A stretch of DNA of 64,000 nt, from NCBI GenBank assembly GCA_039621445.1, contig CP154954.1, positions 42,840,632 to 42,904,631 of the forward strand, in the 5' to 3' direction. The notes beneath the pieces were generated by a model. That model was not told the origin of the DNA and did no database searches. It saw only the letters and a list, made by a program, of their open reading frames with translations. Numbering within the stretch: the stretch's first letter is position 1; each line of letters begins with the position of its first letter. Below, piece by piece: positions 3,100-57,016 of this stretch. Source of the stretch: Euglena gracilis (lineage: Eukaryota). The position numbers and the translations under genes are program-made.

Positions 3100-5100
3100 G
3101 GGACTGGACATTATGCGGTCAATTACGAGTGAGAATTTCCGTGCTGGACGTGCCCCTTCAGCATCCGTTATGCCGCTTCCAGATGTGTGCCGTGAACAGG
3201 GATGCCCCCCTCGAACGCAGCCTCCCCCACTCCACTGGGCTGGCAGTGCGGTGGGTCGAGCATTTGGGCTTGGGCAGGACCACAGAGGGGAGTGGGGCAG
3301 GGCTGGGCTGTGGGGTAAGGCCAGGGGTAGACCCCCCACATGCAAGAAACCCCTCTGGACCGAAAAGTCACCGTCCCAGGGGAGGGGTGGTGGCCCCCAC
3401 CCACTCATCCCGAGGGTGATAAGGACGGAGATGAGGTTGGCGGGGTGGTCGATCTCCCCCCCCCAGGGTTGTATGGGAATCTCCGAGGGGGGGGGAGGGG
3501 GGGGGACCCCCCCCTCCTACCTCCGGTTTTCGGTCGCCGAAAATTGGCTTTTTGGGGTCAAAAGGTCAATTTTTCTGAAATTTCTCAAAAATGGTGGGGA
3601 ATCAAAAGAAATGTCCATTGCCTAAATTGAAGCCCTTAAAATGCCCTATCTAACAGTATATTAATAACTCCCCACCTAGCCCGAGTTACGGCCATTTTTC
3701 GGCCAACTTTGGCCATTTTGCCAAAATTTCATGTTGAGCCTCAAGAGGGTCCTTAAATACCCTTAAATACATACCAGGCGCGAAGCGCCGGAAATTTTTT
3801 TTGCCTCCGCAGAGGAGAAGGGGGGTGGTGGGACCCCCTTCCGAAACTGGGGGGGGTGGGACCCCCCCCCCTACCACCTTACCCCCCAGGGGGGGTGACC
3901 CCCCCCCCTACCACCTATCTCATGTCTGCGGAGCTTCCCATACAACCCTGCCCCCCCCACCCGTGGGGTTTCAGGGAGTCCCGGGCAGCCCAGGGCGCGG
4001 GCGTGTGGTTGGCGCAGCGGGGGCTGCCGGCGCTGCGGACTCTCACCAAGATTGCCGTGGAGCGTGAAGCGTATGGGACCGGCCCATAGGATTCAGGCAG
4101 AAGGGGCCCAGTGGTGGCAGGCTTCGTTTTTTTTTTGTTTATAGATCTGGAGATCTAGAGAGCCCTTTCTTTCCTGAGAAGAGCGGGACATTCAGCGCAC
4201 AAACAGTTCGAAGGAAAAATTGATCAGTGCTTGATGCGGTGCACACCAGTTGAGGTACAGTGCACCCCAGTGGAGGCAGCAGGGGTGTCTCACGCCACTC
4301 GTGCTGCAGGAGCTGCTCGGCAACCTCTGCAGGATGAACCGGGGATAATCCCGCTTTGTCTACGATTGTGAGGCAACTGGTCCAGTGAACTGTTGTTGCG
4401 CGTCGCTGTCTTGTGGTGTGGCAGGTAGTCCCCTCGTTGGGTTCCCGGCATATCCTCCAACAATCAAAGGAAGCACGTTTGTGCTCGGAGCAAATGTCTG
4501 CATCTGAGGGGGGATACCACCCCACCCGTTGGAGTTCTTTTAGCCATCTCTGCAAATCAAGGGGGAAGCGAGAAACCGAATTCCCACGTCCCCATCCATG
4601 CCACCAACCCCTTTCGTTTTTTTAATTCTGGAAATGGACAAAAACTATTTTTTTTTGCTGCCAATTTCAAGGTCGAAATCCGCCTAAGTTTAAGGTGATA
4701 AAATTTTGGGAGGCAGATTACTTCGTTTTTGAAAGAGATGAAGCGATCCTCCTATCCGGATCCGTTGAAAATGTTTACAAATTTATGCCTGCTTAGCCTC
4801 CCAGTCATGACCCCTCATGGACAATATTGCAAGTTGCTAGAAAACAAAGGGATAGGATCAGGGGTGGAGTTATGGTTTAGGTTAGGGTTAGGGTTAGGGT
4901 TAGGATGGGAATGTGGGAGGAGGCATCAGCTGATCCATCCCCATGTGGAAACGTCTTGTACCTGAACCCACACAAGGGCTTCCAACATACTGAGATGAAA
5001 ACCCGCCTCAGACACAATCTGCTGTCCCCTGCAACCAGCAAATGTGTGCCATCTTATCCTCATCTGGGCACGTTCTGGCAGGGGACTTCTTATGGCCATT
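3100..5100 (-). CDS. Fragments of an unresolved multi-exon gene, unknown product
   Basis: Protein-like minus-strand segments at ~4430-4555 (QRWLKELQRVGWYPPSDADICSEH) and ~4240-4345 (VHPAEVAEQLLQHEWRETPLLPPLG), plus a GC-rich exon-like block at ~3996-4075. A self-complementary intron-like interval lies at ~3300-3995. Frame and strand are not fully resolved. Confidence 0.3.
3464..3950. mobile_element. hAT-like MITE (487 bp)
   Basis: Perfect 16-bp TIR CAGGGTTGTATGGGAA / TTCCCATACAACCCTG, flanked by C8 on both sides (3456-3463, 3951-3958). The joined flanks resemble the uninterrupted sequence at ~32356-32412. Confidence 0.85.
4877..4904 (+). repeat. Short interstitial telomere-like (TTAGGG)n tract
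   Basis: ttaggttagggttagggttagggttagg: three perfect units plus two partial units. Confidence 0.7.
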
Positions 5101-5776
5101 CAGTTGGAAACAAATTGCATTCCTCCCCCCTTGTCCTTGACCTTGACACGCCAAACTGCGGGGAAAGTGCGGTTGACGGGGGGGGGGGGTGTCATGGACA
5201 CGCCATATCATGTGCACTGTGCCTTAAAGAAAATGGAATTTTGGGTACAGGGAAAGTGCGGTTGACACACACCCTGTGTGCCCCTGTGTGTCCAGGAAGG
5301 GGGGAGGGGTGTACCGTTCCCCCCTTCCTGGAAATTCCGACGATTTTTGCTCGGTGTGCTCACCGTGGACTTCTGTGCGGGGTCGAAATCAGCAAAAGGG
5401 GGCTGAATGTTTGGGTTTGATTTGAAACCAACTGGTGCGAAAAGGGCCAAAAACGTTTAGGTGAAGCGGGAAAAGGCTCAAACACTGCCCCGTTGTGCTT
5501 CATTGTGAGAAGTCGAAGAGTAAAATGACCGAAAATGGGGAGGGGGCGAGGATGAAAACTGGGAGGGGAATTGCGTATCACAAAAAAATCCCTTCCTCGC
5601 TGGAAAGCAAAGAGACGGCAAAGACACCCCAAACACGACGAAAACATTGGGGCCAAGAAATTTAGAGGGGATCCTACCCCCCCCCGAGGGGTCCAGCCAG
5701 CCAGCACCTCCCTGGGCTGCAGACCAGGCTGTATTTTAGTCGGGTGCCAATCCAACCGGGGGGGGGGGGGTGCCTG

Positions 5777-7216
5777 CCAGAGAAGCATGGTACGCAAATT
5801 ACCAGCACAGGGAGGCGTCCGACCGACTGGCAAGATGTTGGGCACTCTGGGTTGCCGGAGGTGGGCAGCTAAACATCTTGCAAGTTGAAGAAGACCTGCA
5901 ACGCCACTGTGGTTTGGGAGAGGAGGGCGTGTTGCGCATACAGCTGGAGGAGGAGGCCGAGTGGCAGCATGTCGGTTTGGCATGGGCGGAAACCGAGGTA
6001 CTGCTGGAGAGCAAGCCCAGGCGAAGCACACGCACCAGGACCCAACCTCAATGGTACCAGAGCGAACAAACAGAGCACAGAGAACAGAGGCGCCAGGCGA
6101 GGGCATCAGGAAAAGAGAGGTTCTCTTCTGATGGGGACACAGAAATGGCAGCAGAAGAGGAGAGCCATGACTGGAAGGAAGGGGAGAGGATAGGCGAGGC
6201 CAAACACCCTGGTCCTCCAGTCACAGCCAAAGGGGGTCCCCGGGGACAAAAAAGGCGAGAGCCGGGGCATGCACCAAGAGCCCAACAAGCTCTTGGAGGC
6301 AGCCAGCCCCACCAGAAATGGCACCAACCCGTTCAGCAAAACAAAGCAAACAGTGCCAAAGGCTGGACCACAGTCCGAGGCACCGGAAAATCAACTTCTA
6401 CACACACTCCCAACCACCCGCCTCGCACGCGGTCGCGTCGTGACAGCGCAAGCTTGATTTTGCCACCGCAGTTTGGAGGTAACCACACCAAAGGTGGGTA
6501 CACTCACACCAACACCAACACCCCCAGCAATGGCAAGGTGTGCTGGTTTGGTCAGCGGTGCCTATACCCATACTGTCCGTACCAGCACCCAGCCAACTGG
6601 TGGGGGTACACCCAAAAACTGCAGCCCACAGAGGGGGGCTCCCCATGGGGAGGGCGGGGCAGACCGACTGGGGAACAGCGCATGTGCAAGTATGGGATGG
6701 GATGCTGGTGGAGACCACCTCCTGCCCGTATGCCCATCCCATTGAGAACAGCAACGGGAGACAGCAACACAACAACTGGGAACCACACCAAGAGCAAAGA
6801 GCCCGGGGTGGGTCCAAAGGGTCGGGGAAGCAGCAGCGACAGCAGCAGCCCAGCAAGCAGCAGTGGAAAGCATTTCCTTCCCAGGGGGACCCGGCGGGCC
6901 GTGGTGGTAAAAAGGGCCCACTGCAGGTGACACCGGTACCCGCCGGCACGCAGTGGAGGAGTAGGCCCCTTACCACCCCGAGCACCTCTTGGGAACGAAA
7001 TCGAGCAGCAACAGAAGCAGCAGCAGCAGCAGCAGCAGCCAGAAAGGGGAGCCAAAAACCCAAGGGGGAGGGGAAGGGCAAGAAAATCACAAAACGGAAG
7101 TTTGAAGTCCTAGTGAATATGGGGTCGGACAATTATTGGGAGTTGCTCCGAAGAAAGGGCCAGAAGCGGAATGCAGCGCCAGGCCTTAAACCAGACAGAA
7201 GCCAAAGTGCATCTAA
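5777..7216 (+). mobile_element. Retrotransposon-like relic (5' or ORF1 portion), frameshifted, no RT domain
   Basis: Intron-free purine-rich ORF 5770-6930 with GERIGEAKHPGP and a CCCH finger (CWFGQRCLYPYCPYQH). A second finger is split by a frameshift (CKYGMGC / CPYAH) into ORF 6540-7310. Flanked by a direct repeat G11-TGCCTG. Confidence 0.55.
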
Positions 7217-8620
7217 GGGGGGGGGGGTGCCTGTCTGGGCAGGCACTCCAAGGCACTCCAAATCCGACCCCCCCCGGGGGGGGGGGGGGCACTTGGCAAA
7301 AAGTGCCTAGCAGGCACTCCGGCGCCAAAGGGATTGGTAGAAAAACAGCCTGCTACGGACCCTCCTGGGGGGTCCGCTGAAACAAAGTTGGGTCCAAAAG
7401 CCAGGATGGACCGAAGAATCTTCAGCGCAAAGCGCCAAAAACTTTGGGAAAAAGGGGGGGGTCAAAAATGGCCAAAAGATGTCCATTTTTGGGTGGTTTT
7501 GGGGGGTTCACACCTCTAATTTATCCCCCTGGGTGGGTCCAGCCAGCCGGCTTGAAAAAGGGGGTTCAGGGAGGCGGTTCCGACCTGGCTGCCAGGCTGG
7601 ACTCGCCGGGAACCTGAAAGGCGAAAAGCCCAAATCCAGGTGGGTATATTTTTCCCGGCTAAATTTTCAAGGTGAAAAACCAAAGCGTACCAACAATAGA
7701 CATCCTTGGCCATTTTTGACTCACTTCCAAACACCAACAACTTTGGGCAATTCTCCCACCTAGGTCACAGGTCGGCTCATGACTAAAACCCTGAAACTTT
7801 CTAAGATGTGTTTGACCCTGACAAGTTTTGCAGACGGACTCATTTCCATATGGGGGGGGGGGGGCAGCTGGGGGGGGGGGGGCTTGATCAGTACCAAGAA
7901 AAATAACCTGGGAAGGGCCTGACAGGTTTGGAGGGGGGGGCCAAATAACTCTACAAATTGTTGGCGAATTATGGTGAAATGTGGCCCGGGAAACCCAAAT
8001 TGGTTGGCAATGAAACCTGAAAATGGCGCATACGAACGGCCAGGACGGCGGCTATATATGGGTTGTTGGTTGTGGAAGGCATGAGTTATAAAAGAAGCAG
8101 GCTTTCCTGCGGGCCACGTCTGGGAATTGCACACGACTGGGGAAACACAGGGCCCATTTAGGGAAGGGAAAACGTGATTTCAGCCCAGAATTCCTCACAT
8201 CAGTTTGATTTGGACATATATTTAAAATGAAAATATACAAAAGAAAAATAAAATCGAAAATAAAACAAGGCAAATTAAAATGTTTCTTCCAACGAGATTT
8301 TTGGAAAACGAGGTGGCTGTCCCAGCTTGATAGATTGGAATCTTAATGACCCCCCCCCCAAAAGCTGCTGTGATTTGGCCTGTTTGATACATTGTTTGAT
8401 CTGGACATTCTCAAAGAAAAAGCGACTTCGGCTTGAAGGTCACTGTTAGATTTTATGAATTTGTGAGTAAAAAAAAACAACACGCAAAAAAAAAAGGGAA
8501 CATCAGAAAGTTTCATTATTCCTCTCCCCGCACGGAATGCAAAGTACCTTCCTCCGTGTGACTGTCCAGGACATCGCCCTGTCCGGCTGTGTTGTGCTGT
8601 GCAGTCGCGGCCAGCATTCG

Positions 8621-8798
8621 TCAGCAGGGGCGGACCGCATCCACACCGTCCTCCTCCTCCTCCTCGTCCTCCTCGGGGGCGGTGGTCACGCCACCGGGGG
8701 TGTGCCACGTCATGACGGTGTCCGGCCCGGAGGAGGCCACCTCGGGGCTGTCGGGGTCCACCAGGCGCAGCAGCTCGTACACGCTCATCCCCATCGCC
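8621..8798 (-). CDS. Cyclase last exon ((K)AMGMSVYELL...EEDEEEEEDGVDAVRPC*)
   Basis: VYEL motif that follows KGK in class III cyclases; TGA at 8621-8623; upstream intron ends CTGCCGCC. Confidence 0.85.
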
Positions 8799-11700
8799 GG
8801 CGGCAGGCAACCCACCGCAGTTGGGGGTGCATGCCAAGGCGCTGGAAGGCTTTTTGGCCAACTTTTCCAGTGGGACCGCGGTTCGAATGCCCACTCCTCA
8901 ACAGGTGGGGAATTCGTTTGGTCAACAGCGCATATGTCAAAAAAAGGCAAAAAAAATGGGGGGAAAAGCAGACCGAAATTTTTTTCTGAAAAAAGACTGA
9001 TATGGGTACTTATATGATATGGTATGACATGCTTTTCGGCATTTGACCTGAATGGCTGCGCACCCCTATGCAATGGGTTCAAATCAGTGCAAATCGGCGG
9101 TCGAATTGATAAGCAGTCCAAAATTTGCCAGTTTTTTTTGCAAGAAATATTTACCCCCCCCCAAATAACGGGGCGGGGTGCCCCATTACTGGCACCATCT
9201 TTTTGACCTGCCCCGTTATTTGGGCACTACCAATCATCATGGAATTCCCTCACAGACCTGTTGTAATGAGTGACGAGTGACACATCCTCCTACTTATGGA
9301 AATGATGAGTGTTGCAAACCTGACATCCGAGACCTTGAATATGATTTTGACCCACCCATTTGTTACCACTAATTTTACAACAAACTTAACACTGAATAAT
9401 ACCAAATAGCACCGCTGGATGAATGGGGAGGGCAGAGGCAGTCGCCTGAACTTGCCCTTCAGGTAAACGCCGTCCAGCCTCCGGGTAAAATCCAGGCTGC
9501 TGTGTGAACCTGAGCATCTGAACTGGGGACCCCCTAACCCCCAAACCCCTCAGAAGCAAAAATAACAAGAACGCCTTGTTGTGGCTCAAGGAAGAACATG
9601 AAACAAGTGCAACTGTTCGCAGTGGCAGGGGGGGGGGAGTTGGCGCTCTGCCTCCTCGAACCCCCCCCAGAAGCTCTAATGACAAGAACAGTTTGTCATC
9701 TCAAAAGTGTGCAAGTTGCAACGCTTTTTAATCTGATGTGCGTTTCCCGCCCACCCACCCACCCTCGCACCCTCCTTCACCCCCTCCCTGGCCACTCCTC
9801 ACTTCCTTCAGGCCATATGTGCAGAACCCTTCGCAACGTTGTTGGCCTGGTCGGGATTTCCAGTGGCCGGAAAGCCCCCCCCCCCCCCCCGGCAGGGCTG
9901 TACGGGATGGCCTGGTGGGGAGGGTGGTCGACCCCCCACCTGCGAGGTGGGGGGGACAACCCCCCGTTTCAATGGACAAGGAAAAAGTTCTTTTCGGTAC
10001 TTTTAGAGCCAAAGCAAAAAAAAATTGACCTAAAAATCGGCGCCCCCAGGAATACTGGAAGGGGTGGGAGGGGTTCAAACCCCAACCATCAGGATTGGGG
10101 GGAGGGGAACTCAGGCTGCCATAGGTGAGGTATATGGCCATTTCAGGATGTTATTGCCCCTTTGGCAAATTTCACCGCTGTGGCCGTTTTTTTTTTTTTT
10201 CAACCACTTTTGGTGTTGCTTTTTTGAAAAACGAAAATGAACTCAAATTAATCATTTCCATAACTTTAGAACCAGCATCACATCCAGAAAATTAATTGCA
10301 TCTGACCAAGGGGCAGGGCTCAACAGGAAGAACTGGTGGGGCACTGAGCAAGGGACCCGTGGGGATTTGGGGATTCCCACCAGCCCTGCCGGAGGGGATC
10401 GTTGGGGCGTTGTTGGACAACCCAAAACAAACCGCTGGACAAATGAGTGATATTTAATGGTTTTCTTGGATTTCAAAGAGAATATTAACATACCAAAAAA
10501 GGTGATAGTATTGGCTTCTTCCAGACATGTCAGAAAACATGCTTCAACTTCATTATTCAACACATTACCCACCCCTGAGCACCACTTTCAATTCCATGAA
10601 TAATGTGCCGGATGTGCCGTTGTTGTTGTGGTTGTCGCCGCTGGTTGTTGGGGGGGACTTTGTGCACACCTCAACAGGAGCCTCGCCACCACCCGTCGCT
10701 CCACCGCGGCGTGCAGCTGCGGCCCGATGAGGATGCGCGTCTTGCGCTCCTTGTTGAGCCCCTCCAGCCGGCTTGGCCGCAGGCCCGCCGCCTTCTCTCT
10801 TGGTCCTTCTCCAGACAGCTGCAAGCAGCCGCAAATGCCCGACAGCCACTTCGTGGTGGCTGCCACTGAACTCCTCCGAATTAAAGCAAACTGATGCTTC
10901 AAACTGGGTCTCGCCAGTAACTGACCCAGCACCGCTGCTTCAGACTTCGGGCAGAATGGTGGGGCCCAGCCTGGCCGCCACGTTGACCACATCGCCCACC
11001 ACAGTGTAGTTCATGCGGTACCGCGAGCCGAAGATGCCCGCGTGGACCTGCCCCGCCTCCAGGCCCATCCGGCCGGAGAGGCGGGCGCATGGGGCTCTGC
11101 TGGGAATGAGGCGGTGCGTGCAGGGGAAGGAATGGATTGCAGAGGGAGGTCAACTTGGGGGAAGGGTGTCGCGGCTGTGAGAGGGTGCCCGCACCTCGCA
11201 CAAACGAGGCTTTGCTGGTTCCCTTTTGGTGATGAAAACGGAGGAGGGTTGCACGGGAAAAGCAACCCTCTCCTGCTCTTTCCTGAGGACGGTTCACCAT
11301 CAGCGCGTCTTTTAACGACCCCCTCCCCCAGGTTGTCCAGTTCAGAGGCTGGAAAATTCGGGCTGCTGGATAAAGGCCGCTGGCTGACCCCACCCACTTG
11401 GGGTACCAGGCTTGGGCTGGAACTGGGCCCAACCAAGGGTCAGGAACCAAAAAATCCACCATGCAAACTCCAAAAAAAACTTCCAATTGTGCAAAAAAAA
11501 CGATTTTTTTTTACCCGAAATTCGTCCTGGCCAGCCCTTTCCGACCCATTTTTGCGCATTTTCGGCCCATTTTTTTGACACCTGAAAGCAAAAATTCATT
11601 ACCGTCCAGCCTCCCGAAGGGTGGCTGGAAACAAACGATAAAACCCATTTATGGGGGGCGCGTCTGGGCTGGAAAGAGGCTGGCTGGCTCCTCCCTGGGG

Positions 11701-14700
11701 GTGGGGTCGAATTTTCTTCCACTCGCCAATCTTTCCTGCATCCCTGGCTGCCGTTCTGTGCCCCCCCCCCCCAAGTGGAAATCACACAAGATGACTATCC
11801 TGTTGCCCAGATTGATTCCACTTCCCGCCTGGCCGGAGAACGTCCGTCCAAAATCAGTCATCACGGCCAGAAGGCAGGTCTTCAGCCCATCCCCCATCTC
11901 CGGGCCCCGCGATAAAAAAAAAGCCACCCAGCCGGCGGGGCCGCAGGGCGCCATGCCCGCAGGGAGCCGCCCTGCTGGTGGACCATCCAGTCCGCGCACT
12001 CCAGCGCCGCCCGGCACGCATGGTACTCGTGGTCCTTGACGGGGGACGGGGCGTTCCAGAAGGCCATGACGCAGTCACCGGCAGGCGATGGGCCGGGGCT
12101 TTGTTGTCCAGAAATGCCGGTCTTGAAAAGCAGGGGATGCCGGTGTTCACGGTTGTCAAAAACGACAAAGGAAAGGACGTCGCCGGGAAATAAATGAAAC
12201 GCACACAACCAGCACCCTTCACAGCCCTCCACCCATTACCCCACAACGATGTCATCCCGTTTCTGTGCATTACATCCTTTGATCCTGAAATCTCTTTGGT
12301 AAAGGAAACACTGGCTGAAATCAACAGCAAATAACTGCGGACAAAGAGCAATCCCTCGTCCAGGAAACCATGAGTATCAAAGAGAAGCAGGGTGACGCCC
12401 ACCACACACGAATATGGTGGGTGGTGCCAGAGTGAGATGCTTCTCCAGCGGGTCTAACACAGCACTCCAAACCCATGCATATGGTCTGGGGCCAAGGCCC
12501 ACCCTGGCCGCCGATGTACTTGTCGATTACCCCGCGGCGCCGCACGATGATGGAGGACAGCTCCTCGAAGAACGCGCCGATGCTCTCCACCAGCTGGGCC
12601 CAGGGATCGGCAACAAACACTCCCCACCCCCCACGCCACCAAAAAAACAAAGCAGAAAAACAAATGCGAACCGCCACCGAACTACCCTGTATTCAGCCTC
12701 AGAACAAAGTGCTCTAATTCTGCTAAGGCCTGGAGCACTGGTGGGCGTGGATTTACCTCGCCAGGTCGGGGAAAACCGCTGCAGACCATTTTTCAAAGCC
12801 CAGCGGGGGGGGGGGTATTTGCAAAAGGAGGGCATTGCAGGAAGTAATCTATCCTGAGACAATTTTGGTGCACAGGGCGAAGCGCCAAGCTGAAAGACCT
12901 GCCTCCCAAAATCCTTCCTGGAGACAGTCCCCTCCTGGAGTCAGTCTGGCCCTCCTGGTAGGTAGGTGGAGGTTTGGTCCGGACCCCCCTCCAATCTAGG
13001 AGGGGGGGGGGTGTCAACCCCCATCCTGGACACCCTCCATTGTCCCCAGGATTTGATCCACAAAGCTGTTGGGGCTGTTGAAAACTCATTGCAAAGAACT
13101 GATATGCTCAATCCCACGGGTAATGGGGTTGGGGAACTCTTCTTCTTTTGGTGAAAGTTTGTTCTGCCCTCAATGGCATGCGAAGACCTGACTGGGCCGC
13201 ATCGGTGGACTCGGTTAGGTTGGTAAAGTTCTCAATGTCAAGGAAGAACACTGTGGCAGCCGTTGGGGCAGAGGGGGACCAGCAAAATCTCTTCAGGAGA
13301 ATATTTTCTCCTATTTGCGACACAAATTGGAAAGAAGACATTACCCCCCCCTATGTCCAACGACCGGTAACCTCTGTCCTCTGACCGGGGGGGGGGGGGC
13401 GATCATTGGACATAGGGTAGTGACCAAAAAGGTGTCCTCTGACCAGGGGGGTGGTCGTTGGACACAGGGTCGGGGAAAAAAAAGTTTGCCAAACAGGTCA
13501 TAATTTTCCTTCCGGCGCTTCGCGCCCCCATTTCCAGCCCTGTCAACAAATATTTCCTCAAATGGCACCCAGAACGTACCTTTACGCTGCGGGATTTCAC
13601 AAAACAAAGATACCTAGTCGACAATCCCTGCATTCCATCAACCATCTTCACTGCATCATACAACCTAGCAAACACCCGAAAATGTCATGGTGGAACGTTG
13701 GGAGTGTGGTGAAGCTCCTTCGACAACCGCAAGCACTATCCCCGGTGGAGCGCTCGTAATGCACAAAACACCCCAGAGGGAACATTTTAATGGACGATGG
13801 GCTGCGGGGTAGAGGACAAGGGGGGAAGAAAAGCCTTTCAGGGCTGGCAAACCTCCGGTTTCACACACCTGCAAAAAAAACAACATCAAACCTCCGAAAA
13901 GGTGTCCTCTGACCGAGGGGGGGGGTGGTCGTTGGACATAGGGGGGGGTACAAAACGATTGCCCCATATATCTGATGGGTATGATCGTGGAGTACAGGGT
14001 GACGTATTTCATTGTTGCTGGTCACAAAAACAAGAAAAAGTCGTTTGATAGGGAGCAAGATGGTCAACGCCTGGGTTCTTGTGGTTGCAGGGGGTCACTA
14101 CGGTCCCGCCCTGGGGGGCACCATCGAGAAACCCACCGGCGTGCCGCTCTTCAGGCAGGGTTGCAGGACCTCCACCGGCAGGAACCGCGTCGGGGTAGCA
14201 GGTGGCTGCCGTGGCCCAGGGGGGCTCCTTTGGTCCTCGGGGGGGACAGACAACTCGTGAGATGTGATTTCGGAAGGTTGCATTTTTACGTTCCACCCCC
14301 CCCCCGCGCGGGGAACACGTCCACCGGTGCAAGGCAAGAATACAAACTTCTCAAGCTGGACTTTCCAACGTGAAATAGTTGTCGACCGCAGCCATCTTTA
14401 AATCTTTCCCCCAAAAAAAATGCGTAATGCACCGAAACTTATTTCCAGTCCATTGCAGCTGTACCAGGCTACACCAACTTTCAGCGACCCTCCCCTCGGG
14501 GGTCTGCAGCCTTGCTGGGAGCTGCTGGTTGGGAAAAAGTGCTCCAGCTGGAGCCCCCCCTAGTCCTTTCCACCAGAAGTGATACCCTGGTGGGTATCAT
14601 ATGACGCTCCACTAGAAATTCCATAATTTCTGACAGATTGTGCCAAGCTTCAATGTCGGCAAGAACTGATGAAACTGATCAACAAACTGAATTTATTCTT

Positions 14701-23700: not shown

Positions 23701-25060
23701 AACACAACAAAATGCATGGGTTTAGGGTCAAAATTCAGTAAAACATCTCTTTTGGACTTCTTTGGAGCTAGAGAACATTAAATACTCCCGTCTGAGCCTG
23801 AATGGGCTGAGCTGGCTCCAACTTTACTTCAGCGGACCGGGGATTGTATAGCCTTGATTGGCTGGCCCTCCCCGCAAGGTAAGAAAACCCCCCGAAGAAA
23901 GATTGAGGAAAATCCGCCAAGTCCAATGCAAATACAAAAAGAGGCAGCAAAAGCGTTTTCCATCGCAACTGCACATTTGGGGGGAAATTTGCATCACTTC
24001 TTCAATTCATTGTCATCCTTTCATTCACTGTCAACTGTAAATGTTGAATAGGCACGTGTGGGGTGCGCCTGGACAGTGGCACTTGGCGAGACGGTGGGAT
24101 AGAGCCAGGGTTGCAAGGTTTGTTGAATGCGCAGTCGGTTGGGAACAGGAGTTTCACAAACATGCTTTTTGCTGGTGGCCCGGGTTGGTTTTGTGTGTGC
24201 ATTTTGAGAATCAGGATACGAGTGCCAAGAACTGATTCTCTTTGCCAACGTCAGCACAAGCAATATGGACGAGGCCCTCATTTCTTCTACACAACCGAGG
24301 AGGTGCCGTCTGTTGTTTGGCGTTGTCTCCCTTCATCGAGAACCCAAGGGGAGGGTTCACTTCGGGCCTGACCAGGGTTTGAAATGAAGCACGGATCCCC
24401 CTACGGTGGCCCCCCCTCAACAGTGGCCGGGCAACAGTGGCACACCGCGCGCCGAGCCGAAACGTTTTGCCTCCCCCAAAACGATGTCAAAAAGGCTAAA
24501 AATTTAGCGGCGCTAAGAGGGTCCCGCCCCCCCCACCTCCCAAAGAGGTGGCAGGCAAAGAGATGGGAGGAGTTCTGGACCCTTCCCATGGTCAAGACAA
24601 CTCAGAGAATTCTCCTGTAGTATTTTATTGGGTCACGAATACCTTCATCAAGGACAGCTGACCCCCCATCGGGAGACTGCACCCCCCGCCAGGATATTGT
24701 TTACAATTTATCCACCCCCAATGAACAACCGCCTTACCAGGGTCCCTTTGACAATGTCAACCGGATGTCTGTGACAGCTCCCTCAACGCGCCAAACAACA
24801 TTCAAAGACACATCGAGGTTGTGTTAGAGCATTCTCGAAGCCATTCCTGCTCAAGCAGTTCGTTTCCGGGGTGGGCAGCTGGGGGGCGACGGCCCCCAGT
24901 GATTGCCGGCAATGATGGCCGGGAGCAGCGCCCGGGGTCCTGCGCAGCTCTGGGGCGGGGTCGGCCGCGTGACCGGACCGGACCACCAGGCACCGCTCCC
25001 AGAACGGTCTCCGGCGAGCCCCGGTCAGCCCGCCTGTCCAGGCTCGCTGGTTGAGGCCAT
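8621..25060 (-). CDS. Receptor-type class III adenylyl cyclase (TM, extracellular domain, TM, HAMP, cyclase), about 22 exons, roughly 750-800 aa; copy 1, complete at the 3' end
   Basis: Spliced exons reconstitute TVFFLDIENFT, IDKYIGDCVMAFWNAP, RMGLEAG..GIFGS..RMNYTVVGDVVNVASRLEGLNK and RRLDGVYLKGK, with two hydrophobic TM exons. Junctions stay in frame under the non-canonical intron rule. The 5'-most exon is uncertain. Confidence 0.9.
9452..9487 (-). CDS. Cyclase 36-nt mini-exon (TRRLDGVYLKGK)
   Basis: Supplies the conserved KGK motif in frame; the flanking intron ends are complementary to their partners. Confidence 0.8.
10688..10774 (-). CDS. Cyclase exon (SRLEGLNKERKTRILIGPQLHAAVERRV)
   Basis: SRLEGLNK..ILI motif; intron 10775-10976 reads GGCCAGGC...GCCTGCGGCC. 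Confidence 0.85.
10977..11082 (-). CDS. Cyclase exon (LSGRMGLEAGQVHAGIFGSRYRMNYTVVGDVVNV)
   Basis: Catalytic core motif YTVVGDxVNxA; this frame is missing from the ORF track. Confidence 0.92.
11959..12076 (-). CDS. Cyclase exon (DCVMAFWNAPSPVKDHEYHACRAALECADWMVHQQGGSL)
   Basis: Second metal-binding Asp and the MAFWNAP motif. Confidence 0.92.
12510..12595 (-). CDS. Cyclase exon (QLVESIGAFFEELSSIIVRRRGVIDKYIG)
   Basis: GxIDKYIG motif with the adenine-specifying Lys. Confidence 0.92.
13194..13263 (-). CDS. Cyclase exon (TAATVFFLDIENFTNLTESTDAA)
   Basis: First metal-binding Asp motif FxDIxxFT. Confidence 0.92.
13344..13948. mobile_element. Tc1/mariner-type (Stowaway-like) MITE in a cyclase intron
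   Basis: Perfect 22-bp TIR CCCCCCCCTATGTCCAACGACC with TA on both sides (13342-13343, 13949-13950). A related end occurs at ~2340-2406. Confidence 0.85.
14116..14191 (-). CDS. Cyclase exon (TRFLPVEVLQPCLKSGTPVGFSMVP)
   Basis: RF(L/V)P linker typical between HAMP and the cyclase domain; boundaries uncertain by 1-3 nt. Confidence 0.8.
14828..14951 (-). CDS. Cyclase HAMP exon (DMHRCVELD...VRELSLMMESFAKMRVMLDT)
   Basis: HAMP second-helix pattern ELxxLxxSFxxM; in-frame junctions on both sides. Confidence 0.85.
15274..15415 (-). CDS. Cyclase TM2 and HAMP-start exon (AAVDGPIRWSVALLVIISVTSLAAVALVAVLFTNKMIASPLRQVA)
   Basis: Hydrophobic stretch of about 23 aa followed by IxxPL; 5' boundary approximate. 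Confidence 0.85.
16218..16260 (-). CDS. Cyclase small exon (SRGDVTPYYLVLA)
   Basis: In-frame join via intron 16261-16697 (GCCCAGGGGT...ACCCCTGCCTTC); 3' boundary approximate. Confidence 0.65.
16698..16867 (-). CDS. Cyclase extracellular exon (THRAGQLVAAAGSDCAVVAQTYQAL...GSFLISWQRVV)
   Basis: Intron 16868-18537 has a perfect CAGGGGCCC/GGGCCCCTG stem; frame conserved in copy 2. Confidence 0.8.
18538..18654 (-). CDS. Cyclase extracellular exon (DWAALLHSAVQRFSGGAAGASTAYLVDDRGTLIAATCGA)
   Basis: AYLVDxxGxLIA resembles a Cache-domain motif; in-frame junctions. Confidence 0.85.
18727..18964. mobile_element. hAT-like MITE (238 bp) in a cyclase intron
   Basis: CAGGG...CCCTG termini; perfect 8-bp TSD GCTGTGTG at 18719-18726 and 18965-18972. 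Confidence 0.85.
19016..19118 (-). CDS. Cyclase extracellular exon (PRGAIPLTFTEVGQYRMTRVDGLPVIHFVWMQDV)
   Basis: GC3-rich codons; downstream intron stem CAGGGCCT/AGGCCCTG; 5' boundary approximate. Confidence 0.75.
19250..19377 (-). CDS. Cyclase extracellular exon (ATLETWDAPSDRGERYFNMTDGSAEWLEPWLWQEDRPDGSA)
   Basis: WxEPW resembles the Cache WxxPY motif; 3' boundary approximate. Confidence 0.8.
19516..19568 (-). CDS. Cyclase small exon (DNKYLPAPDHVDRYWNL)
   Basis: Preceded by CTGCGGCC and followed by GCCCAG; two of the three copy-2 differences are synonymous in this frame. Confidence 0.75.
20928..21025 (-). CDS. Cyclase extracellular exon (KTWSFCASRMDFAGRRDLFWEHFTNSTVMY)
   Basis: In-frame join via intron 21026-21480. 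The 3' boundary is unresolved and small exon(s) may lie at ~20170-20440. Confidence 0.75.
21481..21568 (-). CDS. Cyclase extracellular exon (KRVMLPWMAGVANRVGGMCTIFPREYVPG)
   Basis: Both flanking introns form terminal stems and preserve frame. Confidence 0.75.
22548..22606 (-). CDS. Cyclase exon (DAWLRHREGDLSGAVMEPD)
   Basis: 89-nt intron 22607-22695 reads GCCCAGGGG...CCCCTGCCCGG; synonymous GAA/GAG change in copy 2. Confidence 0.75.
22696..22828 (-). CDS. Cyclase exon (AVSAVKTQALGYDLLAEVSAQHFHVLALRVQAALDEADYWVNYM)
   Basis: Helical segment after TM1; intron 22829-23293 has the stem CGGGGGCC/GGCCCCCG. Confidence 0.85.
23294..23385 (-). CDS. Cyclase TM1 exon (RHRQRLPLIPVLLLTCLLAIFISVCSTSPV)
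   Basis: Basic residues followed by a hydrophobic helix; in-frame join to the next exon. Confidence 0.8.
24872..25060 (-). CDS. Putative 5'-most cyclase exon(s)
   Basis: GC-rich block with ACAATGGCC at 25060; CGGAAACGAAC after 24872 can pair with GTTTGTTCCTG before the TM1 exon. An in-frame TGA would require a further short intron. Confidence 0.35.
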
Positions 25061-26319
25061 TGTTGCTCCGCCCGCCAACAATCCTGGCGCGGAGGGACGG
25101 ATACTGCCGGCGAAAGCGTCACCCGGCCGGCGGGACCGAAGGAACCTCAAAAGGCAGCACAGGCCAAGCCCGCGTTGTCTGCCCACCCGGAAAACGCCCC
25201 AATTTCGCCCAATTTTTCCGATTTTGCCGCGAAAAAAATCCCGGGAAATTTGTGGCTCCCAGGGTGTTCCGGGATAATTCTGGGATTATTATACCCTGCC
25301 GATACCTTACGGTCAAAGTGGCCTCCAGGCAGTATGGAACCCCAAAATGGCCACTCTGGGGGAGGGGACACTTTGGGGGGGGGGTGAATTTTTGGGCTTC
25401 GGCGACTTCGGGCCAAAAGGTAATGGCCACTTTGGGGGGGGGGTAAACCAAATTGGCGAAAAACTTTTGGCCACTCTGGGGGGGGACACTTTGACGGGGG
25501 GGGGGGGGGGGGTGAGGGTATCTCGACAATGAAGCAAAATCAAAGAAAATGCCCGGAGAGCAAAAATGAAACCCTCGAAATGCCCTATCCAACCATGGTT
25601 TTCCTTTCCCCTAACTCTTTGCGTAGCCCGAGTTACGGCCATTTTCCGGCCCATTTTGGCCCGTTTCAGGGGCCATTTTGGACTGTTTTCGGGGTCAAAA
25701 AATTGATGTTTCCAAAATATCTCGAAAATGAAGCAACATAAAAGGAAATGTCCAGAGACCCGATTTGAAGCCCTTGGAACACCCTATCTAACGATCTAAC
25801 GGTACCATGCCCCCCCCCCCCCGAAAGTGTCCCATACCGGGCCCAACGGCAGGGTGGGTATGGGACCCCCCCCCGGGGGGGGGTACTGGCTAGCCAATCG
25901 GCTAGAAACTGGAAAAAGTGGACTAGCTAGACCCCCCTCCCCCCTGGGGGGGGGGGGTCCGGGGGTCCCCCAGACTGGAAATAAAATTTTCCTCCGGCGC
26001 ACAGCGCCGGAGGAAAAATGAGGTTTTTAACAGGTTTTGGGCTGAATTTTGTTCAAAAAATTCCCCAAAATGGCCAAAAACGGGCATTTTTGGCCATTTT
26101 TGGGTGTCCCAAAAAATTTTCGGCGCTTTGCGCCAGTCGCTGGAAAATTTTTTTCCACTAGCTGGCCCTGCTAGCAGACCCCCCCGGGGGGTTCTGGTAG
26201 AAACCCCACTAGCAAAATTTGGACTAGCTGCAGTCCACCCCCCCCCCCCGGGGGGGTACTGCAATCCCTTGAGCAAATGCCTGTATGGGACACTATCGGG
26301 GGGGGGACACTATCGGGGG

Positions 26320-26610
26320 CAGGGGTTTTTTTAAGAGCGGGGGGGGGGGGTCCCCCCCCACCCACCCACCCCCCAGAGGGGGGGCCCCCCCGGGGGGGGG
26401 GGAGGGGGGTCCGGGGGACCCACAAAAAATGGCCGAAAAATCGCGAAAAGTGCTAAAAATAGAATTTTTTCGGCGCCTGCGGCGCCGAAAAGTATATCCC
26501 ACCCCCCTCTGGGGGGACCTCACCGGGGGGGGGGAGGGGGTCCGGCGGACCCACCCACCCTTCCCCACCCCCTCCCCCCCCCCGGGGGCCCAAACTTAAA
26601 AAAATCCCTG
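26320..26610. mobile_element. hAT-like MITE (291 bp)
   Basis: TIR CAGGGGTTTTTTTAAG / CTTAAAAAAATCCCTG (15/16); perfect 8-bp TSD ATCGGGGG at 26312-26319 and 26611-26618; internal similarity to 18727-18964. Confidence 0.9.
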
Positions 26611-26909
26611 ATCGGGGGGGTCAATAAAATTCCTTTAGGACCGGCCGGCCGGGTTCCATGGTAGGGATATGGGACACTATCGGGGGGGGGGGGGCAGTAT
26701 CGGGGGGCAGGGTTGACGTTTTTTTGTTTTTTAAAAAAAAACACAAAAAACATGTTTTTTTATATAAAAAAACGCAAAAAAAACATATATTTTTTTGAAA
26801 AAGCAAAAATTGACCTTTTTCCTTGCGAAATGACCATTTTTTTGAAGGAAATTTTTCGCGGATTCCCCTGAACGTTTGGGTGCCCGAAAAAAGGTTAAGC
26901 AGTGAAGGT

Positions 26910-29497
26910 GGTTTACGGTTTTACGTAAACGTGCGAAAATAGAAGTTTACGGAAAACCGTGTACCTGAACTTGTTTACTGTCTGCCATAGACCTGTGCTG
27001 CACCCCTCTTGTTTGTGAATGGGGCCCAAACCTTGTCCCCAACCCCTGGAGCTGTGGTTGTGGCCATTTTGACCAAGCCCCCACCCCATATGTCCGATGC
27101 AGCGACTGAATATGTTCACGTGTTTCCGTAAACTTGCTATTTAAAATTATTTGCCGTTATCAATGCATCCCTTCCTGGTACAGCCCCTGCGTTCTGTGGG
27201 AACAGTGCTGGAACAAGGCACGCTTTGTCCATATCAGTGTGGTGTTGGTGCCAAGCTGTGGAGGTGTTCCCCACAAACACTGGCTGGGGTTGCTTGTGGA
27301 GCGGTGGTCCCCCCTCTCACCAGGTGCAGTTGCAACTGAATGAAATGATGTTCACGGTTTCCCGTAAAAATTAGCACAGGTTTGGAGAACAGAATTAACT
27401 CTGGGCAAAGGAACCATGTTGCTGTTGATGAGCCCAGTTGCCATAGACCGACCGGCTACAACCACCTCGACACACCTTGGGCTGGGTAACAGGTGCCCTC
27501 CATTCCCCCGACTTCCCCTGATGCCTCCCAAGAAAGCTCCCTCAAAAACACCCCAGGCTGAGCTTTTTAAAGGCTCACTGCAGGGGGTCGCACCTGCTTC
27601 CTCACCACTTGTTGGGACTCAGCAGCTCCATCCCGACATCGAGATACCCCCCATCTTTGGAATCCAATGTGGTTTCCCTTCAAACTCCCCCACTTACTGA
27701 AAATGTCCTGGAAAATTATTTATCCATTTGGGCATTCCATTTCAACATTACAGAGAACTGCCCTCAAAAACACATTTCGCTCTTCAATTTTGAAGAGCTC
27801 GGCAAAAGAGGCTGAGTTATGCTGAACGTAAAACTGTGGAGCTTAGAGTACGTTTTCAGAATTCCATCCGTTGTTGCTTGTTGCAACTGGGGGAAAAATT
27901 CACCGAAAAAGAAGAGGCAGCTGGAAATCATCAGAGCGAACACCACTCAGAGCAACCGCCTCTCAGGATTGTCACTGACAACCGTCAAAAAAAAATTGGC
28001 CGCTTTCAGCAGGTCAAAATATAGCCTTTTTTGCAGCATCCTTTGCCAATACATTTCGAAGGTTAGCAGGTCTTTTCATAGGGAGCTTCTTTTGATGACT
28101 GTCAAATGATCCTTGAACTCTCTCCTCTATCTTCAAATCACAGTCCACCGTGAGAGATTGGATGAGAGACACGAGAGACTTGCCTGAAAAAAGGTGAAAA
28201 AAATCCAACGACCACAACTTCCGTTGCCAGCTGTGCAAGATTACTTGAAGATCACTTGGGTGAGTGAGCACCAGCTGGTGGTTTGCCCCTCCAATTCTAC
28301 CCGAGGCAACAATGGAGACCATCTTTATCATTATAAATGCAAAAACACTGATATCGAGATGTTTACAGTTTCTCGGAAAATTTTCTTCAACTGAGCACTG
28401 TTTACGGTTTCACATAAAACCAATTTTGTGCGTTGTTTACGGTTATCTGCAAAGGAGGGAAACCTTTGCTTTTTCGGTCAAGCAGGCTGGTGGGGTGAGA
28501 TCCGATGACCTTCCCCCTCCCACTCCACAGGTCCTGAACGCTGCAGACGTTCTGGTTCTTATCAGGAGATGGGTTGCAGCAAATTAACATGGTGGCACCG
28601 AGCAGTGTGATTCACACAGGGGGTCGCGAGTCGGAACACTCTCGCCAAAAAAAACCACTCTCCTGACGGAATGTGTCCTTGCCCCTCGGGGAGACCCCCT
28701 ATCTGGCAGTTTAGGTGGACTCGGAATGTATGTTTCAAACCAGCTTGGGGCCCGGAAAGAAAAATATGGGGCATTCTGGCGGCTGCTGTTGACTCCGCTC
28801 CCGGGGGTTGAGTGGTGGAAACGACATAAACTCCTCCGGAGCACCCGCACAGCAACGGGATCCTCCCCTTCAGCTGTTGGAACTCTACCGCTCCTGTGTA
28901 ATGCCCTACCAGTCCAGGAGGCAAGGGGGGAGCACCGGGGGGTGTCCAGCTGCTTGGCAGCCATCAGGGGCACCAAGAACGAGAGCACCCCAACCCCTTG
29001 TTAACACGGCTTATTTGCACACTTCAAAAAAAATTACGCAGAACCGTAAACATCATTAACTTTACGGTTTCCTGTAAAACTTCATTTTGAAAGTTATACA
29101 CTCACAACCTGCCCAGGAGAAAGAAGGGGTTCCATTTTTGCAAAAGGGGCTCAAAAGGCCAAATCGGGAAAACTGTTTTTACTGGTTTTGCAGGCATTTA
29201 GCCAGGCAACCGCTGTTCAGGAATTATCAGGCCTTTTTGGGGACAAACACAAAATTTCGGACAGAGTCTCTGCTGGGGGGTGGCAGTCAATTTCAGCCGG
29301 CACCAACAAAAAGAAAATTTTCGGGGGAAAAAATGTGGACACAGGGGACTCGACACAAAAGGGCGAAAAATTCCTGATACAGCAAAAAGCCCAAAGTACC
29401 CAAAACGGGATCAAAAGGGTCGTTTTTATCGAGGTGGAAACCAACCCAAAAACTTTCTGGGAAATTTTTGGAGTAAAAGTTTACGGGAAGCCGTGAC
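26910..29497. mobile_element. Degenerate DNA-transposon-like region with repeated GTTTACGG/CCGTAAAC motifs
   Basis: The motif recurs at ~26911, 26946, 27125, 27350, 28400, 28435, 29044, 29060 and 29480. A stop-containing minus-strand segment near 27940-28130 weakly resembles a hAT dimerisation domain. Confidence 0.35.
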
Positions 29498-29758
29498 CTT
29501 TTAAGTGAAAAAACGACAAAAAAAAGTGGGCAGACAACGCGAGCTAGGATAGGGGGCTGCAAGCGCAAGGTCCGGAAAAAAACAGAAGCTTGCCCCTACC
29601 AGCCTGAGGTTCATTGAACTTTGGTGACTGTGAAAGCACTCAAATTTATTTCTCTCTGCAGCATGACTGTGAATATGACTCTGGATGGCAGCTAGCACCT
29701 TTTTTTTCCAGCCAAACCCCCCCCTTAGGGGGGTCCGAAAAAAAAACTCCCTGTCCGT

Positions 29759-29870
29759 GGCCCTCCACTGGAACGTGGCTGGGCCGTGCGCCAGCGCCCC
29801 GTTGCAGGCCACCGCCCTCGCCCTGGAGCTCGCCTGTGCCGCCCAGATCCTGCCCCCCGAGGCCCAGGTC
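29759..29870. CDS. Isolated exon-like GC-rich segment, strand unresolved
   Basis: Plus strand reads ALHWNVAGPCASAPLQATALALELACAAQILPPE; the minus strand is also open. Flanked by CTG-N5 and N3-CAG intron-like ends. Confidence 0.35.
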
Positions 29871-30003
29871 GACCTTCGACCGGGGCCTTGCTAAATGGTA
29901 TCAACAAACGTACAACCCTCAAGACGAGTATAATGGTGGCATTGAGAGGGTTGAAGGGTGTTGTAAACAGGGCGTTAAAGACCCCCCGCCCCTGGGGTGC
30001 AGC

Positions 30004-30390
30004 CAGGGTTTGATATAAGGACAGGTGGGGGGGTGGTCCGGACCCCCCCCCCCTGTGGGCCAGGAGTGGGAGGGGTGGGGGGGGACACCCCCCCACCTAA
30101 ACAGTGGCGCGGTCTGGGTGACCGAAATTTTTTGACCCCCCAAAACGACCATAAGTGCCATTTTGGGCACTTTTTGGGCAAAAATTTGCCAAAAATGCAA
30201 AAAAAAATTCGGCACAAAGCGCCGGAAGAAAAAATTGACCCTTTTTGGGGGTACCCCCCCAGGGGGTACCCCCCCAGAGTTGGTCCGGACCCCCCTGGCA
30301 GGTGGGGGTGGTCCGGACCCCCTGTGGGCCAGGGGGGGGGGGGGACACCCCCCACCTAAACCATGTACGCCCTCCTTATATCAAACCCTG
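30004..30390. mobile_element. hAT-like MITE (387 bp)
   Basis: Perfect 17-bp TIR CAGGGTTTGATATAAGG; 8-bp TSD GGTGCAGC / GGTGCAGG (7/8). Confidence 0.88.
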
Positions 30391-30837
30391 GGTGCAGGTC
30401 AGAAAGGCTGGCTAGCTGGCTGGAAAAAGGCTGCTGACTTACCCCCCCCCCTTCTCCATGGGGTCCCTGGCCGTAACTGGGCCTGACGGGGGGTCAAACC
30501 AAATCAAAACTGCAAAAATGCCAAAAAATAATAATGCCAATTATGCAAAAAAAAAATTCCGACCCCCTTTTTTGCCCAGTTTAGGTCCTTTTTACACATC
30601 CGACAGGGTTACCGCACGGCCGCCTTTGGGCAGCCGGAAAAAAAATAAATAAACTTGTGTGGGGCTGGAAAAACGCTTCTGGCTGGACCAAATTCTCTTT
30701 CGCAACGCCCACACACCCACAGAATGCATTTCTAACTTCAATGTCCTTTTTGATCAGAATAATTTCATGACAGTGAAGGACGATCGTGAGTTGGATGTCC
30801 TTTGGATTTGGCCTTGGTGCTGGATGGTTGTGTCCTA

Positions 30838-31253
30838 GTAAACCCCCAAAAATAAGACCCAGGACTTATTTTTGGGTCCGTGGCTTCCGGGGGGGGTCTT
30901 ATTTTGGGGGGGTCTTATTTTGGATTTTTTCTTGACCGACCCGGGCCAGAAAAGCACCATTTTTCAGGTTCCCTAGACTGCTAAAATCTTTCCTTCGGCG
31001 CTTCGCACCATGTGTAAATTGGTGTAATTTGACATTTAAGATGTATTTTGCACTTCAAGAATCTGAAATTTTTTGAAATTTCATCATTTTTGTGTTTGAA
31101 ATTGGGGTTTTTGGTAATTTTCAGAGAAAAATTTCACCGTCTTCGCACCGTCAAGGGGGGTCTTATTTATGGGGGGGTCTTATTTCTGGATTTTTGCTCG
31201 ATCGGCCCAGGGGGGGTCTTATTTGGGGGGGGGTATTATTTTGGGGGGGTTAC
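30838..31253. mobile_element. MITE with GTAA(A)CCCCC..AAATAA.ACC terminal inverted repeats
   Basis: Left end GTAAACCCCCAAAAATAAGACC matches the reverse complement of right end GGTATTATTTTGGGGGGGTTAC; internal GGGGTCTTATTT repeats. A related fragment starts at ~31508. Confidence 0.65.
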
Positions 31254-31254
31254 T

Positions 31255-31881
31255 CCAGACCGCCATTTAGTGCATATCACAACGTATCTGTGATACATTA
31301 ATTTTATTTTGGTGATACATATGTGATACATTAAAAAATTTTGGGTGATACATATGTGATACATTAAAAAAAATTTGGTGATACATATGTGATACACAAA
31401 TTTTTGTCTTTTTTGTCAGCAACTTCTCAGCCGCTCCTTCCAAAGGGAACCTTCAAAACGCGGAAGACAGGATTCCGAGACAACAATTCCTCAAACCATT
31501 GGCAAGAGTAAACCCCCCCAAACGGGGGGGGGGGGGGTCTTATTTGGGGAGGGGTGTTATTTCCCAAAAATCTTCGAAATTTTTCGAAGCCACGTAAGTC
31601 CCAAAATAGCACCCAAAACCCCCTTTTGGGTCATTTTTTGTGCTTTCTCATAAAATTTAGCATTTTTGGAGGCCAGATGATCAAGAAAAAAAATAGAAAT
31701 TTTTCGTAATGTAATGTAATTTGATGTAAAAAAGGAAATTTTAATGAAAAAATTTGGTGATACATATGTGATACATTAAAAATTTTTTGGTGATACATAT
31801 GTGATACATTAATTTTTAGGCTGTGATACATGTGATACGTAAAAAAAATTTTTGGTGATACATACTAAATGGAGGTCTGGG
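31255..31881. mobile_element. TIR element with internal GTGATACATATGTGATACATTAA repeats
   Basis: TIR CCAGACCGCCATTTAGTGCATATCAC versus reverse complement CCAGACCTCCATTTAGTATGTATCAC (22/26); subterminal repeat arrays at both ends. Confidence 0.7.
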
Positions 31882-32205
31882 TTACTCTCTCCTGGGAATG
31901 GTTCAGAGTGACGATCATGCTGAACTTAATGTATCTGATGATATATATCCTTTACAATCAGGGTTGGTGAGTGGGTGGGTGGTGGGCGGGCGGATGGGTG
32001 CGTTCGTGCGTGCACGCATGCATGCATGCGTGCATTGCTGCCAGCATTTCGTCCAAAACAAGTGCGGCAAGCTGCAACGAGGATTTGGTAGGAACCACCT
32101 TTTCTTTTGGACATGCTCCTATGCGGCTTCCGGGAAGCGATTGAAATGGTCCCCGACACACTTTGGGGGCCGTCCCCCATCCCGGCAGGAGAGGCAGCGC
32201 TGGAC

Positions 32206-32449
32206 GGTGACCGGGGCTCGGGCGAGGCGGGGCGGAGAGGGTGAGCTGCTCGCCGAAGCCCGGCGGGGGGTCATTGGGCCCGACAGCCTGCAGGGTGATG
32301 GCGTGGGCGGAGGCGGCGGAGGCAGGGCGGCCCCAGGAAGGCCGGGGGGGGGGGGGTCGACCCCCCACCCACCACCCATGTGGGGTTGCAGGGAGTCCCG
32401 TCCAGCCCTGGGTGAAGGAGGAGCGCAGCGTGGGGGAGAACCACGGCAT
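32206..32449 (-). CDS. First two exons of an unknown gene (MPWFSPTLRSSF / AASAHAITLQAVGPNDPPPGFGEQLTL...)
   Basis: ATG at 32449 follows a pyrimidine tract plus AG (possible trans-splice acceptor). The 96-nt intron 32318-32413 (ACCCAGGGC...GCCCTGCCTCC) preserves frame. Downstream exons not resolved. Confidence 0.5.
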
Positions 32450-56771: not shown

Positions 56772-57016
56772 GGTGACCGGGGCTCGGGCGAGGCGGGGCG
56801 GAGAGGGTGAGCTGCTCGCCGAAGCCCGGCGGGGGGTCATTGGGCCCGACAGCCTGCAGGGTGATGGCGTGGGCGGAGGCGGCGGAGGCAGGGCGGCCCC
56901 AGGAAGGCCGGGGGGGGGGGGGGTCGACCCCCCACCCACCACCCACATGGGGTTGCAGGGAGACCCGTCCAGCCCTGGGTGAAGGAGGAGCGCAACGTGG
57001 GGGAGAACCACGGCAT
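56772..57016 (-). CDS. Unknown gene, first exons, copy 2
   Basis: Homologous to 32206-32449 with the same translation. Confidence 0.45.

Follow-up and report, generated by a model that had tools for sequence, protein, structure and literature searches.

Nonconventional introns of a Euglena gracilis adenylate cyclase gene: 3-nt and 5-nt spacers and a possible origin of some introns in CAGGG-ended elements with 8-bp target-site duplications

On the balance of the evidence presented here, we consider it fairly probable that some introns of a receptor-type adenylate cyclase gene of Euglena gracilis are insertions of short CAGGG-ended DNA elements with 8-bp target-site duplications, excised by a cut placed 3 nt before and 5 nt after the stem that pairs the intron ends. 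The gene lies in a stretch of 64,000 nucleotides of nuclear DNA with a G+C content of ~52% (assembly GCA_039621445.1, contig CP154954.1, positions 42,840,632 to 42,904,631), referred to below as the window; all coordinates are those of the window. How euglenid nonconventional introns arose and how they are removed have been questions since the 1990s, and most introns of Euglena genomes are of this kind. Specifying the type of transposon, and equating the 3-nt and 5-nt spacers with a single 8-bp duplication, turns the general idea of an origin from something like a MITE (miniature inverted-repeat transposable element) into checkable predictions. If true, the rule would also account for the tolerance of the genome to massive intron gain, and it gives no reason for a split into 3 and 5 over other pairs summing to 8.

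The mechanism that we propose starts from a family of short non-autonomous DNA transposons that have CAGGG...CCCTG ends and generate 8-bp target-site duplications, a hAT signature. In the nonconventional splicing of Euglena, a 5’ end of the CAG type pairs with a 3’ end of the CTG type, and the cuts fall 3 nt before and 5 nt after the resulting stem. Since the ends of the element would be those of the intron stem, a member of the family landing in an exon would have a spliceable shape from the start, and the 3 + 5 cut would take out the element together with exactly one 8-bp duplicate, such that the original message would be restored.

Five elements with these ends are present in the window (Table 1). 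Four of them had been named in an earlier reading of the sequence (the original prediction), and their CAGGG...CCCTG ends and 8-bp flanking repeats were confirmed, with matches of 8/8, 8/8, 8/8 and 7/8, one of the repeats being poly-C; MITE 5 was found in the follow-up, ~5.4 kb upstream of the cyclase start codon. The poly-C repeat of MITE 1 fixes no duplication length and is uninformative in this respect, whereas the repeats of MITEs 2 and 3 delimit exactly 8 bp. Perfect terminal inverted repeats (TIRs) run for 5-18 bp across the five elements. MITE 1 resides in unannotated DNA, ~4.7 kb past the last cyclase exon, MITE 2 is nested within intron 18655-19015, and MITEs 3 and 4 lie within the 7214-nt intron 25010-32223. 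Paralogous copies of MITEs 2 to 5 (42521-42747, 50692-50986, 54376-54758 and 62452-63012, respectively) occur in the second unit of a tandem duplication of 24.4 kb (15244-38789 versus 39013-63441; BLAST identity 91-96% by segment, substitutions 2.55%), indicating that these insertions are older than the duplication.

Table 1. Elements, gene and selected introns in the window (8-mers are the two sequences compared at the intron junctions).
Feature	Position	Strand	Description
MITE 1	3464..3950	.	487 bp; perfect 16-bp TIR; poly-C flanking repeats 3456-3463 and 3951-3958
MITE 2	18727..18964	.	238 bp; TIR = CAGGG only; flanking repeat GCTGTGTG, 8/8, exactly 8 long
MITE 3	26320..26610	.	291 bp; TIR 15/16; flanking repeat ATCGGGGG, 8/8, exactly 8 long
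MITE 4	30004..30390	.	387 bp; perfect 18-bp TIR; flanking repeat 7/8
MITE 5	37823..38365	.	543 bp; CAGGG...CCCTG ends; TIR 11/16; flanking repeat ACAACAAG/ACAACGAG, 7/8
Receptor-type adenylate cyclase gene	8624..32449	-	25 exons separated by 24 introns, with no GT-AG intron at the register used; RNA reads and transcript-derived protein
Nonconventional intron	12596..13193	-	598 nt; 3 nt + CAGG...CCCTG + 5 nt; 8-mers GGCCCAGT/GGCCCAGC, 7/8
Nonconventional intron	32318..32413	-	96 nt; 3 nt + CAGGGC...GCCCTG + 5 nt; 8-mers CCTTCACC/CCTCCGCC, 6/8, both mismatches transitions
Nonconventional intron	12077..12509	-	433 nt; 3 + 5; 8-mers TCGGCGGC/CCGGTGAC, 5/8, all mismatches transitions
Nonconventional intron	23363..24074	-	712 nt; 3 + 5; 8-mers 5/8 (7/8 purine/pyrimidine)

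The exon-intron structure of the cyclase gene was established from RNA and protein. A 44-residue exon used as query returned one protein, P0001, at 98% identity; it has 764 residues and a class III cyclase domain, and is labelled in EukProt as a Euglena gracilis transcript. It aligns to the minus strand in 25 exons between 32449 and 8624 and bridges all 24 introns. Reads of three raw RNA-seq runs, together with one contig set, were aligned to region 12420-32419, and we used the 14 RNA joints that were listed of 93, all 14 of which fall on the minus strand; with 13 exons joined, the reading frame stays open after splicing. Introns beyond the RNA joints were taken from the P0001 alignment, giving the total of 24, with 8 of these based on protein mapping alone and intron 14192-14827 additionally supported by the loose end of an RNA contig. 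All 24 introns are removed from the mRNA, as seen in the RNA joints and in P0001, though their borders are not GT...AG at the register used.

The arithmetic of the original prediction, in which 3 and 5 unpaired nucleotides add up to one 8-bp duplication, is correct, and it agrees with the experimental need for 3-nt and 5-nt spacers reported in PMC12501133. We chose stem registers by eye within the slide allowed by the RNA, an automatic search for the stem register being too ambiguous. The 3 + 5 geometry fits 20 of the 24 cyclase introns, a result that is partly circular for the 8 protein-only introns, whose register was selected among protein-equivalent positions to fit 3 + 5; among joints without sliding freedom it fits 5/6. 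The stem begins with CAG in 15/24 introns and ends with CTG in 17/24, and the downstream exon opens with a purine in 22/24, the exceptions being 16261-16697 (C) and 9488-10687 (T).

Across the window we took all 3186 CAGG...CCTG pairs with a spacing of 60-1500 bp and recorded those whose flanking 8-mers matched at no fewer than seven of eight positions. At the exact flanking register 10 of the 3186 pairs passed this threshold, corresponding to 6 independent loci once the tandem duplicate was collapsed, compared with 0-5 pairs (mean 1.7) at 15 shifted registers and 4 with a swapped motif. The six loci are MITEs 1-4, MITE 5 and a single intron, 12596-13193.

At least this intron and 32318-32413 are best read as insertions of such an element. 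In 12596-13193 the 7/8 repeat directly abuts the CAGG/CCTG ends, the RNA joint is slidable by 7 nt, and the interior holds a MITE-4-like stretch (12927-13023) detected when the MITEs were compared with the window by BLAST. The same comparison reaches the 96-nt intron 32318-32413, which is matched by positions 20-52 of MITE 3 at 91% and by the right end of MITE 1 at 75%. Its removal is supported by a 368-nt RNA contig whose match stops at 32322, and by P0001, which connects 32414 with 32317; a paralogous copy lies at ~56884-56980, and the minimum-energy fold leaves exactly 3 and 5 nt unpaired. The two strands of the window together contain four copies of a motif that joins a G-run, TC, a C-run and ACCCACC, one each in MITE 2, MITE 3, intron 32318-32413 and the paralogue of this intron, and all four lie 9-21 nt inside a CAGGG end in identical orientation.

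Intron 12077-12509 is probably likewise an insertion of such an element. P0001 takes another acceptor here, 12124, retaining 48 nt that encode 16 extra residues in a conserved cyclase motif, whereas the 12077 acceptor gives a contiguous motif, as in five bacterial homologues. Each of the two acceptors lies 5-6 nt after a CCTG.

The proposed origin predicts that exon(-5..-1)+intron(+1..+3) should match intron(-5..-1)+exon(+1..+3), and we scored this match for each intron against a null of 50,000 derangements. The three 8-mer pairs quoted in the original prediction, at 7/8, 6/8 and 5/8, are exact as written, and each mismatch in them is a transition. Over the 24 introns, four score 7/8, 6/8, 5/8 and 5/8, and the other 20 score 0-4. 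When bases were reduced to purine or pyrimidine, 3 introns matched at 8/8 versus 0.17 expected (p=0.0002) and 5 at 7/8 or better versus 1.82 expected (p=0.022), although this statistic was picked post hoc; for the 14 RNA-joint introns alone, the latter count was 3 versus 0.77 expected (p=0.023). All mismatches (6/6) in the three introns at 8/8 are transitions, compared with a transition fraction of 0.58 between the tandem copies. With the right 8-mer displaced by 1-6 nt in either direction, 0-1 introns reached purine/pyrimidine 8/8, as opposed to three without a shift.

Several observations weigh against an insertion origin of the cyclase introns. The predicted match is seen as a small tail of introns (7, 6, 5 and 5 of 8), but total identity shows no excess, with 70 matching positions observed versus 68.2 expected across the 24 introns (p=0.41). 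The number of introns scoring at least 6/8 was 2 versus 0.57 expected (p=0.10), and among the 14 RNA-joint introns 1 versus 0.23 expected (p=0.21). Four introns depart from the geometry, with spacers of 4+5, 3+6, 3+7 and 3+4 (spacer sums 7, 9, 9 and 10), and a 3’ spacer of 6 nt, with which the frame would not be restored, is permitted by the published splicing code. Intron ends and MITE TIR families have CAGG(G) in common but little else; only at the 3’ end of intron 24101-24956 does the similarity go further, with the CAGGGTTG that opens the TIR of MITE 1. None of the MITEs is itself an intron, no MITE in the window was observed being spliced from an exon, and a comparison of the tandem copies revealed no difference in MITE presence or absence between them. 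Nor was a transposase found, the 10 longest open reading frames of the window having no Pfam match. Two introns behave as originally predicted, and the interpretation is supported in part: the predicted signature is limited to a small tail, and most cyclase introns carry no such trace. The remaining introns may be older insertions whose duplicates have decayed, and the spacing may equal the duplication length for this reason and not by accident.

The foremost rival to an insertion origin is coincidence, in which 3 + 5 is a property of the splicing machinery unrelated to transposition, MITEs pile up in long introns, and the repeats arise by chance or from a Y|R (pyrimidine|purine) preference at both junctions. 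The lack of 8-mer identity in most introns fits this explanation, as does the placement of MITEs 2-4 as nested elements, and conventional introns have also been reported with short junction repeats (PMC12501133). We nevertheless judge it unlikely: it has to set aside the equality of the MITE termini with the intron consensus CAGG(G)/(C)CCTG, the subterminal MITE-family motif in intron 32318-32413, the repeat that abuts the stem ends of 12596-13193, and the report of a recently gained intron with eight-nucleotide repeats (PMC4770533). A far broader form of the insertion hypothesis can also be framed, in which nonconventional splicing is tuned to the 8 bp that a hAT-like family duplicates, most of the >70% of Euglena introns that are nonconventional are decayed insertions of such elements, the machinery evolved or was retained to erase these insertions at the RNA level, and the published Y|R symmetry and ‘slidable’ junctions are remnants of the duplication. 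We regard this extension as possible, and hold it tentatively. The junctions themselves are similar, with intron positions +1..+3 mostly G-S-C and the downstream exon start mostly R-A/G-C in the 24 introns, indicating that both junctions share a similar consensus; this would be expected if they had either a duplication or a cleavage preference in common.

The superfamily of the elements is a separate question. The label ‘hAT-type’ is provisional, being drawn only from the repeat length and the terminal motif. hAT elements have short TIRs with the terminal motif 5’-YARNG, which CAGGG presumably fits, and a target preference of nTnnnnAn, for which we saw no clear fit by eye in the only 5 duplications available. 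The family may be hAT. Alternatively, the intron-forming MITEs could be real but be members of a different superfamily that makes 8-bp duplications, e.g. Merlin or P. E. gracilis is reported to have two Merlin families with 8-bp duplications, and Merlin TIRs to have a conserved terminal 5’-GG (PMC8101967). The elements described here start with CAGGG, however, and moving their boundary to GG abolishes the flanking repeats. Taken together with the match to the hAT motif that we assume, this makes a non-hAT superfamily improbable in our estimation.

Two further rivals concern how the repeats and the shared ends came about. Junction repeats might result from intron gain through repair of staggered double-strand breaks, with no transposase involved (Milanowski et al. 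2016), which is the explanation given by the original authors for their own 8-nt repeat (PMC4770533). We find this very improbable, since it leaves unexplained the CAGG...CCTG ends of the inserted DNA, the length of 8, and the motif that the 96-nt intron has in common with elements bearing 8-bp duplications elsewhere. A reverse flow, in which the MITEs descend from nonconventional introns turned mobile and the common ends reflect intron ancestry, is more improbable still: common CAGG(G) ends alone give no direction, but copies are flanked by 8-bp duplications both within introns and in unannotated DNA, which suggests DNA-level cut-and-paste by a transposase, and perfect TIRs as long as 16 and 18 bp are traits of transposons and not requirements of splicing.

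Other features of the locus were noted. The tandem duplication spans the first 16 cyclase exons and the region upstream of the gene, and the cyclase-domain exons (14949..8624) are single-copy in the window, so that the upstream tandem copy must either splice over ~24 kb to reach them or represent a truncated gene. Indels between the tandem copies (586, 87, 256 and ~46 bp, and others) were considered as MITE gains or losses and rejected, being poly-A or low-complexity sequence, with the 586-bp block unclear. This block (42969-43553) distinguishes the two tandem copies of one intron, being part of the second and missing at 19184 in the first; it has inverted ends, CAGAATT.../...AATTCTG, and no clean 8-bp flanking repeat. 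Possible nested MITE remnants are found at 9626-9942 (a CAGG...CCTG element of 317 bp, flank 6/8, TIR 11/16) and at 22308-22431 (a MITE-1-like right end within intron 21569-22547). A metagenome scan with the 18-nt TIR of MITE 4 returned 9 loci with similarity over 18-22 nt only, which are not MITE copies. The introns with 5’ ends at 19251 and 11958 on the minus strand have nine identical bases after the 3-nt spacer, CATGGCGCC, which could be due to chance or to a second end family. In the RNA data, contig-set multiplicity is very high (12-33 contigs, summed depth in the thousands) at 13361, 18111-18346, 20614, 25907-26271 and 30011, indicating further high-copy repeats within introns. Long poly-G loose ends and joints that go back occur where reads pile up at the G-runs 20490-20507, 25495-25512 and 26392-26409, and are most likely sequencing or alignment artefacts.

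A MITE-like origin of euglenid nonconventional introns was proposed in 2014 (PMC3935182). A 2024 review terms the CAG/CTG ends TIRs and describes the junction repeats as resembling target-site duplications, and contains neither ‘hAT’ nor ‘8 bp’ (PMC11282704); the words hAT, MITE and intron are not present in the E. gracilis genome paper (PMC11252322). Milanowski et al. described a recently gained gapC intron of E. agilis with eight-nucleotide direct repeats at its junctions, which they ascribed to break repair (PMC4770533), and the knock-in experiments of Nomura et al. (2025) showed that these introns splice after transfer to a foreign exon and that both spacers are required (PMC12501133). Within the main texts searched, no paper was found that ties nonconventional introns to hAT or to a 3+5=8 rule, and supplements (the intron tables and sliding-distance figure of PMC12501133, Table S3 of PMC4770533) may bear on the claim. 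The MITE origin and the duplication-like repeats are thus already published, and the link drawn here between hAT and 3+5=8 is a specific, testable sharpening and not a new kind of system.

The cyclase introns resemble the euglenid nonconventional introns described previously (Milanowski 2014, 2016; PMC12501133) in their non-GT-AG borders, the pairing of CAG with CTG at positions +4..+6 and -8..-6, the 3-nt and 5-nt spacers, and the purine that opens the downstream exon. Those texts, as far as searched, name no transposon family, 8-bp rule or actual Euglena MITEs, whereas in this window introns of the same shape have CAGGG-ended elements with 8-bp duplications as neighbours. A close parallel is offered by the introners of Micromonas and Aureococcus (Huff 2016; Gozashti et al. 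2022, 2025, PMC12130899), in which an exonic DNA transposon becomes an immediate intron and the duplication is used to restore the message. Introners depend on the spliceosome and on GT/GC-AG sites that derive partly from a 3-bp duplication, unlike the non-spliceosomal-looking CAG/CTG stem rule and the 8-bp duplication split into 3 + 5 considered here; as for families of the introner kind, the one gene examined has a single intron with a family motif that is also present in two MITEs. The non-canonical introner elements of Amoebophrya (PMC7789003) likewise have their intron ends paired by inverted repeats (8-20 nt there), along with direct repeats overlapping the exon/intron borders. Their direct repeats measure 3-5 nt, however, and the elements come from other families in another lineage. 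Finally, the maize Ds element, a member of hAT, is said to be removed at the RNA level when inserted in an exon, through cryptic spliceosomal sites and usually imprecisely, in work attributed to Giroux (1994), which PMC3935182 cites. The elements proposed here would share with Ds the removal of a hAT-family exon insertion from RNA, and would differ from it in a geometry that restores the message exactly.

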